Part shown: piece after piece, positions 34,659 to 38,982 of the stretch
Numbering within the stretch: the stretch's first letter is position 1
Layout: each line of letters opens with the position of its first letter
Sequence record: PZ445418.1
Length of the DNA stretch: 43,104 nt
Direction: 5' to 3' (one strand)
Source of the DNA: a phage
Notes under the pieces: generated by a model
Told to the model about the DNA's origin: nothing
Seen by the model: the letters and a program-made list of their open reading frames with translations, nothing else
Database searches by the model: none
Position numbers and translations under genes: made by a program

Positions 34659-34706
34659 TGTCTCTTCCTCTAAAAATAGGCCCGCAGATTAGCGGGCCGG
34701 ATAATA

Positions 34707-35135
34707 TTAGTCTTCCAGTTCGAAATAGGTTTCGACGATTTCTTTCAGATCTTTGTGGAAGTCTTCGACGTCGTCATCTTCCAGCTTGGCGATTGATTTG
34801 ATCTCAAACGCTTCCAGCAGGTCGTCAAATTCGTCGTTCGCGTCGTCGTCGTCACCACCAGCGATAATAGCGGCGTACTGTTTGATCTCATCGCGCATCT
34901 CTGCCAGCGGGTCGGCATCTTTCTTACCTTTTCCTTTCGCCGGAGCTTTTTTACCCTTCGCTGGTTTTTCGTCTTCGGCTTCATCGTCGTCATCTTCTAC
35001 GACTTCTTTTTTGGCCTTAGACGGCTTCTTGTCTTCCTGCTTACCAACGGCAGCGCCAACGGTTTCATAATGCTTAGCGATGGTTTCCAGTGCTACTACG
35101 CCGCGAGTAATCAGGTTTACGATTTGCTCAAACAT
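34707..35135 (-). CDS. acidic/Lys-rich early protein, first gene of leftward operon
   Basis: 143 aa from ATG at 35135 with GGAG RBS; runs DDDDEAEDE, GGDDDDANDEFDD, LEDDDVED plus KPAKGKKAPAKGKGKK; track ORF extends upstream to 35363. Confidence 0.5.
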   Translation of the reverse strand: MFEQIVNLITRGVVALETIAKHYETVGAAVGKQEDKKPSKAKKEVVEDDDDEAEDEKPAKGKKAPAKGKGKKDADPLAEMRDEIKQYAAIIAGGDDDDANDEFDDLLEAFEIKSIAKLEDDDVEDFHKDLKEIVETYFELED

Positions 35136-35331
35136 GGTATATCTCCAATTGGTTAAGTTTAGGTGTCGACCATTAACCTCGTCGGTGGCCTTAACATATT
35201 GCCTGGTTACGCGTTCTCCCGTTCGGGTAGTGGACCAGGTTATATAATCACGGTTGGGAATCCTGACACTTCGATCCGGCCCCTGCGTCGCCCCTCTCCA
35301 GTTTGCGTCCTGCATCCTGTCGACGGAGTGC

Positions 35332-35360
35332 ATATTAGATTGGTTGCAGAAGGGAGTCAA
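35332..35360 (-). promoter_or_regulatory. sigma70-like promoter TTGACT-17-TAATAT (leftward early promoter)
   Basis: good hexamers, 17-bp spacer containing TGCAACCAAT (35339-35348 on plus strand). Confidence 0.5.
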
Positions 35361-35370
35361 CAACTAATTT

Positions 35371-35406
35371 AAAAAAAAAGCGCCGAGGCAAAATGCAACG
35401 GCGCTA
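35371..35406 (-). terminator. intrinsic terminator on minus strand
   Basis: AGCGCCG / CGGCGCT stem followed on minus strand by nine U. Confidence 0.6.
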
Positions 35407-35428
35407 ACCAATAAGAGACAATGAGACG
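35371..35428 (-). ncRNA. candidate small RNA (about 58 nt)
   Basis: minus-strand promoter-like TTGAAA-17-AATAAT (35435-35463) followed within about 60 nt by the terminator above; no ORF. Confidence 0.25.
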
Positions 35429-35476
35429 GGATTTATTATTACACGCGTGCGCGCCCGTTTCAATATTCCAAAGGAG

Positions 35477-35505
35477 TTGACACCCTGCGGTTTTAGGTGT
35501 AGTTT
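35477..35505 (+). promoter_or_regulatory. sigma70-like promoter TTGACA-17-TAGTTT
   Basis: perfect -35, weak -10, upstream of HTH gene. Confidence 0.4.
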
Positions 35506-35536
35506 CATTGGTCATTAACCAACCGGAGACAGAACA

Positions 35537-35866
35537 ATGAACGTAAACGACGCAATCGAAATGTTAACCAAGACTGTTTGCAGTGAGACAAGCCGGTCCT
35601 GGGCGTATACCGATGCCGTGGGGGCGGTGTTATTCGAGGTCGAACGTCTGCGCAGTGTAGAAAAAGAATTACGCGCCAGGCTGGAATTGCTCAACGGTAC
35701 GGCGGCGAGCAAGCTGCAAAAGCACAATGAGGAAATGGAAGAATACAAAAAGCAGGTTATCCGTTTGCGCGCCGAGGGAAAGTCATGGGCGATGATCGCG
35801 GAGTTGACAGGAATTAATCAGAGCACCGTGCGATCCTGGGTACGCAATAACAAAACTTCGAAGTAA
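35537..35866 (+). CDS. helix-turn-helix DNA-binding protein
   Basis: 109 aa, C-terminal GKSWAMIAELTGINQSTVRSWVRN HTH-like segment; GGAGA RBS. Confidence 0.55.
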   Translation: MNVNDAIEMLTKTVCSETSRSWAYTDAVGAVLFEVERLRSVEKELRARLELLNGTAASKLQKHNEEMEEYKKQVIRLRAEGKSWAMIAELTGINQSTVRSWVRNNKTSK

Positions 35867-35876
35867 GGCAACGGCA

Positions 35877-38141
35877 ATGAGCTTAATTAAATTCGCTGTA
35901 ACAAGACCCGCTAAAAAAGGCGAAAAAGCCAGGGCGGAAAACTTCCAGATGACGACCGATGAGTTTTTCGAATTTATCAAAGATGCGAAAGAAATCTCCT
36001 CGGTGCATATCAACAAGACCGAGGATAAAGCCGAGTATGCGCGCCGCAAGCGTAAGGCCGACGGCATCGTGGCGTATACCAGTGATGGATTGCGTCGCAA
36101 GACCAGTGCGGTGGACCGCTCGATCCTGTTCTTCGATATTGACCGTACCGACACCCGCACCCTACGCCGCTGCCGTAAGGCGTTCATTGACGCGGGTATG
36201 GAACACGTATTTCACACCACAACCGGCGACCGTCACCCACTGAAAGGCGGTATGCGTTGTGCCCGTTTCCTGGTGCTCACCGATAAGCCTGTACCGGCTG
36301 AAGACCTGGGCCGCGTCCAGTATGCACTACTACACCAACTGGGCCTGTCAGATGTGGACTTCGACGATTGCACGAAAGACACTAACCGCCTAATGTACCT
36401 GCCACATCAGCAGTCTGTCGTTAAGTGTCACTACGGCAAACGTGCCCGCGTCCGTCGTCTGCTTCGCCTGGCTGATAAGCTGGGAGTGGAAAAAGAGGAA
36501 GTACGCCGCGAACTAACCCAGGGCGATGACGGCGTGGCAGACGGTATTCTGGATTGGTGCTTCCAGGCGGGATTCGAACCGCTGTCGTCCGGTCGTGGCT
36601 ATGAAGTGCCGTGCCCGAACGAACACCTGCACAGCGGCGAAGGGTCCACCGCTATTATGGTTAAGGATGGCGAGATCCGTTTCAAGTGTATGCACACCGG
36701 AAACGAGTGCTGTTCCGAACTGAACAGACACCAGCACCTGGCGCTACGTCTTATAGGGATCCCGGACCACCTGAACGTCGAACCGCACAACATGTCACGT
36801 AAGCAAATCGCCGCCATCCTCCCTGGACTGGACGACGAGGAAGTCGAATCGTGCTATGAACATATTGTTGATGCAGTTGGCGACGGCGAAGAATACGGCG
36901 TGTGCACCGATGCGGATCTGGATAACGAGCCGGTCGCACTCTTCAGTAAGCACGACCCGATCATAGAAGGCCTGGTAAACTTCAAATCGACCTGGTACAT
37001 GGCTGGCGAGTCGAACATCGGTAAATCGTTCTACGTGCTGGGGCAAATGGGCGCGGTTGCCGCGGGGATTCCGTTCGGTGGCGCGAAGGTAGTCCAGTCT
37101 CATTGCTTCTATTTCGACGCGGAAGGTGGTGAAGCCTCCAACCAGCGTAAAGAAGCATTGCAGATTAAATACGAGCACGACCTGGACAAGCTGCACATTA
37201 TCGATCTGCAATCACGCGGCTGGGATATCACCAGCAAATCCGGCTTGCGTGAAGTTATCAGCTTCATCAACCGCACCGCTAACGGCGAGCCGGTTGGCCT
37301 GGTGGCGTTCGACTCACTCAACCAGACTGTTGCGCTGCGGTCCGCCGATGCAAAACCGTTCGACGAGAATAACGCCAGCGATATGGGTGAAGTGGTCAAA
37401 GCGCTGAAGGCCATTGCGGAAAATACAGGCGGCAGTGCGGGCGTCATCCACCACCCAGCGAAGGGTGCAAACGGCAGCAGATCTCCCCGTGGGTCCGGCG
37501 CGCTTCATGGTGCTGTCGATTCTGCGTTCTTCCTGGAACAGCCGGACGACAACCAGCCAGGCCAACTCAACCTGTACCATGAAAAGGCACGTAACGGCAT
37601 CAAGCAAGCGCCGCGCGGCTTCGTCCTGCTTAAGTGCAAGGTTAAGGTGGATCTCCGCAAGTCCGAGGCGTTCGAAGCCCACCAGTCCACCAGCACCGGG
37701 CCGGACTTCGGTGATGTGGTTGCCGGATGGGACGTCAAGCCAATTGCCTCCACGCCACGCGACGAGACTCTCTACCTCGTACCGGTCGCCCTGGCGCCGT
37801 TCGCTATCGAACAGGCAAAGGCAGCGGGCAAAGCAGCAGTTAAGGAAGAGAACACCGCCGGACCGCGCAACGAAAAAGAAAAGGTACTTTACGCGGCGCT
37901 GGAAAAACTGATGGAAGACAACCCGGACCATACCGGATTCAGTAAATCGGCAATTGTCCGCCAGGCGGGATTGGCAAAAGGTGGCACATCGACGAAGGCA
38001 ATCGACGATATGGTCGAGCGCGGAGTGCTGGGTTTTTACACCGATCCGCACACTGGGGCCATCTATGGGTCGTCGAATATCGTCATTAAAACGAATATAC
38101 CCATCACGCTTTCGGCGACCGACGAAGATTTAAAAGATTAA
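35877..38141 (+). CDS. primase / replicative ATPase fusion protein
   Basis: 754 aa; Cys/His cluster CPNEHLH...CMHTGNEC; Walker A GESNIGKS and Walker B-like LVAFDSLN in C-terminal half. Confidence 0.7.
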   Translation: MSLIKFAVTRPAKKGEKARAENFQMTTDEFFEFIKDAKEISSVHINKTEDKAEYARRKRKADGIVAYTSDGLRRKTSAVDRSILFFDIDRTDTRTLRRCRKAFIDAGMEHVFHTTTGDRHPLKGGMRCARFLVLTDKPVPAEDLGRVQYALLHQLGLSDVDFDDCTKDTNRLMYLPHQQSVVKCHYGKRARVRRLLRLADKLGVEKEEVRRELTQGDDGVADGILDWCFQAGFEPLSSGRGYEVPCPNEHLHSGEGSTAIMVKDGEIRFKCMHTGNECCSELNRHQHLALRLIGIPDHLNVEPHNMSRKQIAAILPGLDDEEVESCYEHIVDAVGDGEEYGVCTDADLDNEPVALFSKHDPIIEGLVNFKSTWYMAGESNIGKSFYVLGQMGAVAAGIPFGGAKVVQSHCFYFDAEGGEASNQRKEALQIKYEHDLDKLHIIDLQSRGWDITSKSGLREVISFINRTANGEPVGLVAFDSLNQTVALRSADAKPFDENNASDMGEVVKALKAIAENTGGSAGVIHHPAKGANGSRSPRGSGALHGAVDSAFFLEQPDDNQPGQLNLYHEKARNGIKQAPRGFVLLKCKVKVDLRKSEAFEAHQSTSTGPDFGDVVAGWDVKPIASTPRDETLYLVPVALAPFAIEQAKAAGKAAVKEENTAGPRNEKEKVLYAALEKLMEDNPDHTGFSKSAIVRQAGLAKGGTSTKAIDDMVERGVLGFYTDPHTGAIYGSSNIVIKTNIPITLSATDEDLKD

Positions 38142-38260
38142 ATTTTGCGCGCATTGGTTGCCGATATGGGAATTCCCATATCGCTAAAAGGTTAAATTTT
38201 GCGCGCATTGGTTGCCATTTTGAGTGTTTTTATTTGGTCGTATTGGTTGCCGTGTAGTGT
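38138..38260. repeat. direct repeats flanking a perfect 20-bp palindrome
   Basis: TTAAATTTTGCGCGCATTGGTTGCC at 38138-38162 and 38192-38216; palindrome GATATGGGAATTCCCATATC at 38163-38182; third ATTGGTTGCC at 38242-38251. Confidence 0.75.
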
Positions 38261-38268
38261 AAATATAG

Positions 38269-38463
38269 TGAATAGTTATGCAGTTTTATTGCATAAAGTA
38301 AGCGGGACAGAAAGCGGGACAAACAAGGGGCGGGACAAAGCGGGACAGCACCCCCGTCCCGCCCCGGATGGCGCGGCTTCCAGAGGAGCGGGACAGCGGG
38401 ACAGCACCCCAGTCTTTCAGACTAGACGGGGGTCATCGGCCCCCCTCGTCTGAGACTGAATAA
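38269..38463. repeat. iteron element B (second copy of element A)
   Basis: box TGAATAGTTATGCAGTTTTATTGCATAAA, six GCGGGACA(G/A) units, terminal hairpin differing from copy A at only 2 positions. Confidence 0.8.
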
Positions 38464-38619
38464 AATCCGGGGGATTGCAAAATACACGGCAGCATGTTGC
38501 GAAGTGCGGTCGCGGATGAACTAGGCAACCAATGCGAGATGCATTATGCGGAGTGAAAAACACAGTTTGCAGTTGCAGCAGATAGCGATCAACTTTTTCA
38601 TGCGCATGTTTGATATTGG

Positions 38620-38648
38620 TTGCATCCGCCCTAGCACCCTGCTATATT
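38620..38648 (+). promoter_or_regulatory. sigma70-like promoter TTGCAT-17-TATATT
   Basis: flanked by ATTGGTTGCA at 38615-38624 and 38645-38654; leader matches the one upstream of 4453..5217. Confidence 0.55.
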
Positions 38649-38676
38649 GGTTGCACACCAACAAGAGGACTGAACA

Positions 38677-38982
38677 ATGAAAGCGATTATCTGGAATTAC
38701 TCCCTGGCCGTGGCAAAGCTGGACGAAGCGAAGGCACTAAACAGCAACGTAGATCAGGCGCTTCAGGTTGCGATACTGGCGCATCAATCCCTTCGCAGCG
38801 CGCTCTATGGCATGGGCGCCAGCATGGACGAACTGAGGCCGTTGCGTATGGCAATCCACGAATACGCGCGGGCATTCTCCCGTGAGCGCCTGGCGTATCG
38901 CTTCGGTATTGGCGATAAGGCAGTGACAAACGTCGCCAGGATTAAAGCCCAGCGCGAGCTATTCGCCCAGCTTGCGAAATAA
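38677..38982 (+). CDS. hypothetical protein
   Basis: 101 aa helical protein, RBS GAGGA. Confidence 0.5.
   Translation: MKAIIWNYSLAVAKLDEAKALNSNVDQALQVAILAHQSLRSALYGMGASMDELRPLRMAIHEYARAFSRERLAYRFGIGDKAVTNVARIKAQRELFAQLAK

Follow-up and report, generated by a model that had tools for sequence, protein, structure and literature searches.

The window analysed here, a stretch of 43,104 nt of phage DNA (PZ445418.1), belongs to a Dhillonvirus of the HK578/EP23 type: 174 phage records match a 1.5-kb stretch around the region of interest at 90–95% identity, nearly all of them Escherichia and Shigella Dhillonviruses such as EP23, HK578 and SO-1. Large open reading frames run rightward from 1 to 23.4 kb, leftward from 24.7 to 35.1 kb and rightward again from 35.5 to 43.1 kb, and because of these directions on either side the gap at 35136–35536 is the divergent early control region of the phage. 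This gap measures ~400 bp in most relatives too. A sequence-only reading of the DNA had described three promoters and a minus-strand terminator in a divergent control region, and every feature that it listed is present where it was placed (Table 1).

Databases label the helix-turn-helix protein encoded by the first rightward gene a 'transposase/resolvase'; it is likely a regulator, and a helicase-primase gene comes after it. On the leftward side, the strong intrinsic terminator that follows the first gene is also annotated in WF5505, a phage without the leader fold described below. No recognisable promoter lies ahead of the next leftward genes (from 34658 leftward), so the rest of the leftward operon would need read-through of this terminator.

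All three predicted promoters of the gap have both sigma-70 hexamers, a spacer of 16–18 bp and conservation in relatives. The rightward one has the perfect −35 that the sequence-only reading had named, and its −10 matches at 3 of 6 positions, which is why the promoter scanner did not list it. Hexamer matches found by the scan are not above chance (3 in the region vs 2.0 expected from shuffled sequence), so the sequence by itself proves little and support comes from conservation. Three promoters are also annotated in this region of the HK578 record, where the annotations are themselves predictions. The predicted start of the leftward transcript falls 0–3 nt from the first helix of the leader RNA, P1, and 0–1 nt before it as placed from the leftward promoter.

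Between the rightward −10 and the Shine-Dalgarno sequence lies an inverted repeat that is unchanged in 21 of 22 distinct relatives, while the adjoining 5′ untranslated region (UTR) varies; this pattern suggests that the repeat is probably an operator. One of its half-sites, TTGGTTA, recurs in the single-stranded 5′ region of the candidate small transcript. The 9-mer GCAACCAAT sits in the spacer of the leftward promoter (35347–35339) and is found throughout the phage, with 14 exact copies in the window (5241, 5254, 21360, 25765, 25782, 28724, 35339, 38153, 38207, 38242, 38525, 38615, 38646 and 39180) and, with one mismatch allowed, 24 copies vs 11.7 expected. The copies are often paired at 13–17 bp, and the motif is probably a site of a phage regulator. 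The 7-mer AACCAAT is likewise repeated (17 copies vs 5.3 expected). An intergenic stretch after the helicase-primase gene (38100–38720) holds six copies of GCAACCAAT/ATTGGTTGC, two 32-nt repeats and several AGCGGGAC units, and could be a replication origin or a second control region.

Table 1 Features of the control region and its flanks, in window coordinates
Feature	Position	Strand	Details
Strong intrinsic terminator right after first leftward gene	34679–34698	-	GGCCCGC-taatct-GCGGGCC, then TATTTTT
First leftward early gene	34707–35135	-	142-aa acidic protein; phrog_3127, function-unknown family; start codon 35135
Linker, P1 to start codon	35136–35164	-	29 nt, G-poor; ACC tail, then GGAG Shine-Dalgarno
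Structured leader RNA, P1 to P1	35165–35324	-	~160 nt, nine helices
P1	35324–35319 with 35170–35165	-	the GTCGAC pair
P2	35318–35312 with 35306–35300	-	loop AGGAC, 35311–35307
Junction GGAGA	35299–35295	-	
P3	35294–35290 with 35189–35184	-	long-range helix; A35186 bulged
P3b	35288–35286 with 35252–35250	-	short helix within P3, leads to Pc
Pc	35283–35274 with 35267–35256	-	hairpin arm, loop CGAAGU
P4	35245–35241 with 35198–35194	-	P4-P5-P6 form a three-helix arm
P5	35239–35234 with 35207–35202	-	contains the CCTGG/CCAGG pair
P6	35230–35225 with 35220–35216	-	
Leftward early promoter	35332–35360	-	TTGACT-17-TAATAT; promoter scan; HK578 promoter annotation at homologous place
Candidate ~57-nt non-coding transcript	35371–35428	-	5′ region 35428–35405, hairpin 35404–35380, U9 35379–35371
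Promoter of candidate small transcript	35435–35463	-	TTGAAA-17-AATAAT; TG upstream of −10; 10/12 consensus matches
Rightward promoter	35477–35505	+	TTGACA-17-TAGTTT; −35 35477–35482, −10 35500–35505; hexamers conserved in relatives' alignment
Inverted repeat (putative operator)	35508–35522	.	TTGGT-cattA-ACCAA
First rightward gene	35537–35866	+	109-aa helix-turn-helix protein; phrog_9366; Pfam HTH_23, HTH_28, Sigma70_r4_2

The candidate small transcription unit between the divergent promoters

The minus-strand hairpin and U9 tract proposed at 35371–35406 are present, with GCGCCG (35380–35385) opposite CGGCGC (35399–35404). Our scanner missed this hairpin because its loop exceeds 8 nt. It comprises a 7-bp GC stem and a small inner stem, and folding of the candidate transcript, a check that the sequence-only reading had suggested, gives the hairpin −16.4 kcal/mol (z = −3.6) and leaves the 5′ region single-stranded. 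On the plus strand no U-tract follows the stem. Among relatives, the stem changes from GCGCCG/CGGCGC to TCCCCG/CGGGGA in L015 and to CCCCAG/CTGGGG in L018 with the T-tract kept, and these compensatory changes mark the hairpin and U9, at the level of sequence, as a real intrinsic terminator. The WF5505 record annotates a minus-strand terminator here as well, itself a prediction.

We then profiled conservation across 22 distinct Dhillonvirus sequences. Invariant columns make up 86% of the second minus-strand promoter, 92% of the 24-nt single-stranded 5′ region and 72% of the hairpin, in comparison with 0% of the 6 nt between the −10 and the start and 12% of the rightward 5′UTR. Conservation in the gap is thus highest in the block made up of promoter, 5′ region and terminator. 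In the divergent L018 the unit is built anew from different sequence, with a TTGCGC-17-TATTAT promoter at the same place, a 5′ region that begins GCUCAUUGUCU, and CCCCAG/CUGGGG plus U13. Because this block is the best conserved and is rebuilt in L018, a real RNA of ~57 nt, close to the 58 nt of the sequence-only reading, is the probable product of the unit, and the terminator would in addition shield the leftward promoter. There are no minus-strand genes to the right of the unit, so that the conserved upstream promoter would be the only one in need of blocking, a point against insulation as the sole function. An insulator role besides, or in place of, a small RNA is plausible.

If the second of these applied, the hairpin and U9 would be an insulator and nothing else, the T-tract would serve as an UP element for the leftward promoter, no functional small RNA would exist, and the promoter-like site upstream would be a by-product or a protein-binding site. 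Consistent with this, the T-tract occupies positions −38 to −50 relative to the leftward promoter, phages of the L031 type likewise have a terminator immediately ahead of the promoter from which the fold is transcribed, and promoter-like matches occur in the region at chance frequency. An insulator would nevertheless leave the contrast between the 92% invariant stretch from start to hairpin and the wholly variable 6 nt before it to be accounted for, and we consider this explanation somewhat unlikely.

It is rather less likely still that the ~57-nt RNA is the key feature of the region and represses the rightward helix-turn-helix gene by pairing at its ribosome-binding site and start codon. Besides the conservation of the block, the 5′ region can pair with UAACCAA, GGAGAC and CAAUGA at 35517–35541, and a CUCAUUG opposite CAAUGAG recurs in HK578 and L018. 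However, a duplex-energy scan of the whole genome found the complementarity to the neighbouring start site not above background: the site falls outside the best 12 genome-wide duplexes of the 24-nt region (the top ones at −22.2 to −19.7 kcal/mol), and a duplex of −21.2 kcal/mol included bases that precede the likely start. A protein-binding half-site is another possible identity of the shared TTGGTTA, and the 5′ region is invariant, so that it offers no covariation with a target. The phage regulatory RNAs lambda oop, P22 sar and P1 c4 are small and each have a promoter and an intrinsic terminator of their own. Like them, the unit at 35428–35371 is short and non-coding, has a near-consensus promoter and a hairpin with a U-tract, and lies inside a control region; unlike them, the candidate small RNA does not overlap its proposed target and its complementarity is at background. 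To our knowledge there is no earlier study of early regulation in Dhillonvirus, for which this unit and the repeated GCAACCAAT offer a starting map.

The structured RNA of the leftward leader

The main result lies in the leader of the leftward transcript, whose GTCGAC-flanked and CCTGG/CCAGG-paired segments the sequence-only reading had treated as a minor remark. This suggestion of RNA structure proved sound: the two pairs are P1 and P5 of a fold supported by covariation. A sensitive blastn search with the 401-bp gap matched the leader at ~35208–35313 to intergenic DNA of unrelated phages at 78–94% identity, including Drexlerviridae (JK16 and others), Murrayvirus Lumpael and Klebsiella phage IME279, and the genes flanking each match run in the leader direction. 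Pattern scans of IMG/VR, metagenomes and genomes supplied further copies, all on contigs of phage size (39–52 kb) or short fragments. In an exact-pattern scan of 185,579 bacterial and archaeal genomes there was one match, on a 42.7-kb phage-like contig inside a metagenome-assembled genome (MAG), and looser IMG/VR pattern scans followed by the model found no distant members.

The helices were first worked out by hand, from differences between lineages that compensate each other, and were then put to the test; their coordinates in the window come from structure computation together with direct reading of the sequence. P1 and P2 are misaligned in the raw MAFFT alignment, and RNAalifold consequently predicted a poor structure from it. 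In a test on the MAFFT alignment of 15 non-Dhillonvirus sequences, covering 43 proposed pairs in 8 helix blocks (the grouping of the counting tool), 95.7% of cells are paired vs 29–45% in controls in which the 3′ partner was slid by 1–3 columns, and both-sided changes occur at 18 pairs vs 2–5. In the model-based alignment of 36 distinct sequences, the values are 94.3% of cells paired vs 31–44% slid, compensatory changes at 22 pairs vs 5–8, and a covariation score of 0.367 vs at most 0.071; pair counts from a model-fitted alignment lean towards the model, and the MAFFT-only result agrees with them. Diversity in the family is modest, with identities of about 75% or more.

The individual helices display the same pattern, in which stems vary by compensation and junctions and loops are invariant. 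A pair of the long-range helix P3 is G-C in 20 sequences and A-U in 16 with zero exceptions. P5 occurs in six or more sequence versions, including CCUGG/CCAGG, CCAGG/CCUGG, CCCGG/CCGGG, CAUUGG/CCAAUG and CUAUC/GAUAG; inner P6 pairs swap C-G for G-C, and L053, L041 and Lumpael have single changes in the Pc arm, each with its compensating change. The GGA of the P2 loop is invariant, and the loop together with its closing bases is CAGGAUG or CAGGACG. On the opposite strand the invariant G-U pairs would become C-A mismatches, and for this reason the fold belongs to the minus strand, that is, to the leftward transcript.

A covariance model (R1) built from the 15 non-Dhillonvirus sequences alone finds the window leader at 35158–35331(−) with 121.5 bits (E about 2e-33). 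It matches one copy per genome and has zero matches in 780 kb of unrelated viral DNA. Folded alone, the window leader is not unusually stable (z = 0.14), a value that is uninformative, and the covariation-supported fold has −26.7 kcal/mol vs −47.7 for the minimum free energy structure. Taken jointly, a real RNA fold on the transcribed strand and a real terminator are very likely features of this region.

Placement of the element is regular. Across an alignment of 37 distinct copies, a −10 hexamer lies 7–10 nt before P1 in every lineage, followed by ~160 nt of alternating invariant and variable blocks, an unrelated linker and a start codon. The linkers are G-poor and unstructured; their length is 25–47 nt overall, and 15 of the 17 lineage variants have 25–32 nt. 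An ACC or ACCA stands right after P1 in about 9 of 13 lineage variants (35162–35164 in the window), reminiscent of a tRNA 3′ end. The fold always comes after a sigma-70 promoter and before unrelated genes, in at least six phage lineages; the downstream genes belong to different PHROG families, all of unknown function, and none of the copies found is free-standing. Carriers with names are Dhillonvirus, Murrayvirus, Sortsnevirus, Bas97 and Enterobacter phage Arya, and within the Drexlerviridae subfamily Tempevirinae Warwickvirus JK16, Changchunvirus PHB17 and 'Motto', so that three Drexlerviridae lineages have it. The fold is common to several unrelated groups of virulent enterobacterial phages and was seen only in virulent phages. 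Three records filed under unrelated hosts hold sequences nearly identical to enterobacterial phages (MG065648, Campylobacter phage A144; ON843697, Pseudomonas phage Motto; and QFQS01000013, a Cereibacter MAG contig, L060); contamination or mis-binning is the likely cause of these host labels.

Some Dhillonviruses lack the fold: WF5505 (L020), L004, L011, L013, L015 and L018. In these phages a clean block of ~120–140 nt is missing, with the promoter and the 5′ half of P1 retained on one side of it and the Shine-Dalgarno sequence, the gene and the downstream terminator on the other. Such leaders appear to have arisen by deletion, in lineages that once had the fold. Since these relatives keep everything around it, the domain is dispensable; it is a self-contained module. 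A short filler in their leaders (GGGGCAUACCGCACCGGAC) is similar to both halves of P3.

The fold matches no RNA family that we could identify. A covariance-model scan, another check put forward by the sequence-only reading, returned nothing on the fold from Rfam 15 at E up to 10 in the window and 7 other representatives; weak matches in the window (STnc480, ncS54 and isrL) fall on the terminator hairpin, far below gathering scores. ARAGORN predicts 0 tRNA or tmRNA genes in the window and 6 element-carrying loci. In 5,426 complete E. coli genomes, blastn (E up to 10) found nothing that matches the fold, a result that speaks against sequence mimicry of a host RNA. Given this result, apparent likenesses to the glycine riboswitch (CUGGAGAG/ACCGA-GAAG), 5S rRNA (GAUGGUAGUGU), 16S rRNA (AACCGUGAG), the 5′ end of tmRNA and c-di-GMP-II were set aside as chance. 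Full-text literature searches on core 13- and 16-mers and on RNA elements of Dhillonvirus and Drexlerviridae yielded nothing relevant. A bulk IMG/VR survey lists 10,006 unnamed viral RNA candidates (PMC10690425), and the leader fold may be one of these.

Existing records either leave the fold blank or call short ORFs over the leader. Bas97_0052 (L078 2044–2163) and TheodorHerzl gp49 (L003 2205–2315) are short 'hypothetical proteins' over the fold or the small unit, and the 3′ end of the PHB17 methyltransferase (L076 1369–2127) is a neighbouring-gene call extended over one of them. The 218-aa open frame that runs through the leader of the window (34707–35363) is an artefact of the same sort.

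Possible roles of the leader domain

The leftward sigma-70 promoter (35360–35332) very probably starts a transcript whose first ~160 nt (35324–35165) fold into the conserved domain, in which P1 joins the extreme 5′ end to a stretch that lies ~30 nt ahead of the start codon. Because it is so elaborate and has invariant junctions, the fold most likely binds something. The domain would be a cis-acting element of the early mRNA to which a host factor, a phage factor or a small ligand binds, giving the phage control over translation initiation or stability for the following gene in the manner of a riboswitch or translational operator. The fixed position next to the ribosome-binding site is what favours a cis role on translation or stability, and we hold this mechanism tentatively, with a confidence that stops somewhat short of probable. 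As in riboswitches, an aptamer-like fold with covariation support occupies a 5′ leader. No conserved terminator, anti-terminator or Shine-Dalgarno-sequestering helix was found downstream of P1 across lineages, so a classical expression platform is missing. With the cis mechanism and the small RNA added to the fold and the terminator, we lean slightly towards the complete account being correct.

The dispensability of the domain fits an accessory or trans role as well as a cis one, and the main rival is a trans-acting accessory RNA, made first after infection and perhaps trimmed off the mRNA, that binds or decoys a host protein such as an immunity or RNA-metabolism factor and leaves the gene behind it unregulated. 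Such an RNA would account for a module that is cleanly present or absent among near-identical Dhillonviruses, that keeps 78–94% identity between phage families with unrelated flanking genes and that is absent from bacterial genomes; it also suits the location at the extreme 5′ end of early operons rich in small genes with no assigned function, and the ACC(A) tail after P1 in most lineages. Against it, the domain was never found with a terminator of its own, a start codon always lies 25–47 nt away, and no processing signal could be demonstrated, ARAGORN seeing no tRNA-like gene. On balance we think it unlikely.

Lower still in our estimation is a cis-acting processive antiterminator or anti-Rho element like HK022 put, which would modify its own polymerase to read through stops. 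The domain does adjoin the promoter in early operons of phages that use the host polymerase, and the first leftward gene of the window is followed by a strong terminator with no promoter beyond it, an arrangement similar to that in L031. Yet WF5505 and other relatives without the domain keep the same terminator (34698–34679), and Lumpael, JK16 and IME279 have no intrinsic terminator within 1.4–6 kb downstream; both points weaken this explanation. Terminator scans downstream of the element in four other lineages gave an inconsistent pattern, and the size and shape of the domain differ from those of put. We judge this explanation improbable.

A DNA-level element (an origin, a packaging or a protein-binding site) or a small coding gene in place of an RNA fold, to which the open frame through the window leader and the small ORFs called in several records might point, is hardly credible, since no frame is open in all lineages (each has stops in some lineage, and no conserved start codon was found) and since the compensatory stem changes, the strand-specific G-U pairs and the fixed orientation relative to the promoter all speak against it.

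Returning to the proposal of a domain that binds a factor or ligand, large and highly conserved RNA folds with invariant junctions usually bind something specific. Well over a hundred sequenced coliphages transcribe this fold before anything else, among them BASEL collection members able to grow on E. coli K-12, and all records examined leave it unannotated or mistake it for tiny ORFs. Through it, a new layer of early gene control in phages, or of counter-defence, based on RNA could come to light. A bolder reading, which we mention as a doubtful possibility, is that the fold is a new class of functional RNA exchanged horizontally among virulent enterobacterial siphoviruses: a riboswitch or ribozyme that senses the state of the host at the first moment of infection, or else a decoy RNA that disables a host defence or RNA-binding regulator ahead of the synthesis of the first phage protein. 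At a minimum, a well-supported family can be added to RNA databases and phage annotations can be corrected. Because natural relatives with and without the fold exist, its role is testable at once.

Several known systems share part of this architecture. With riboswitch aptamers and orphan candidates, the fold has in common its place in a 5′ leader, a closing P1, variable stems, invariant junctions and multi-way junctions; unlike riboswitches, it has no match in Rfam 15 and no recognisable expression platform, and as it stands before unrelated genes of unknown function in virulent phages, gene context gives no clue to a ligand. The put RNAs of the lambdoid phage HK022 are cis-acting antiterminators of ~70 nt with two stem-loops. 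They too are structured RNAs just downstream of early promoters in a phage dependent on the host polymerase, and their action, as proposed for the leader fold, does not depend on which gene comes next; the leader fold has ~160 nt and nine helices and bears no similarity to put. RNAs of the CsrB/CsrC type carry repeated GGA hairpin loops with the CsrA-binding heptamer, which the P2 loop CAGGAUG/CAGGACG may be said to resemble, although the leader has one or two such loops within a much larger conserved fold. Finally, the E. coli thrS operator, the rpsO pseudoknot and the T4 gene 32 leader each control one gene and bind its own product; as in these operators, the folded domain ends ~30 nt before the start codon at a fairly constant spacing, while the leader module, unlike them, precedes many unrelated genes.
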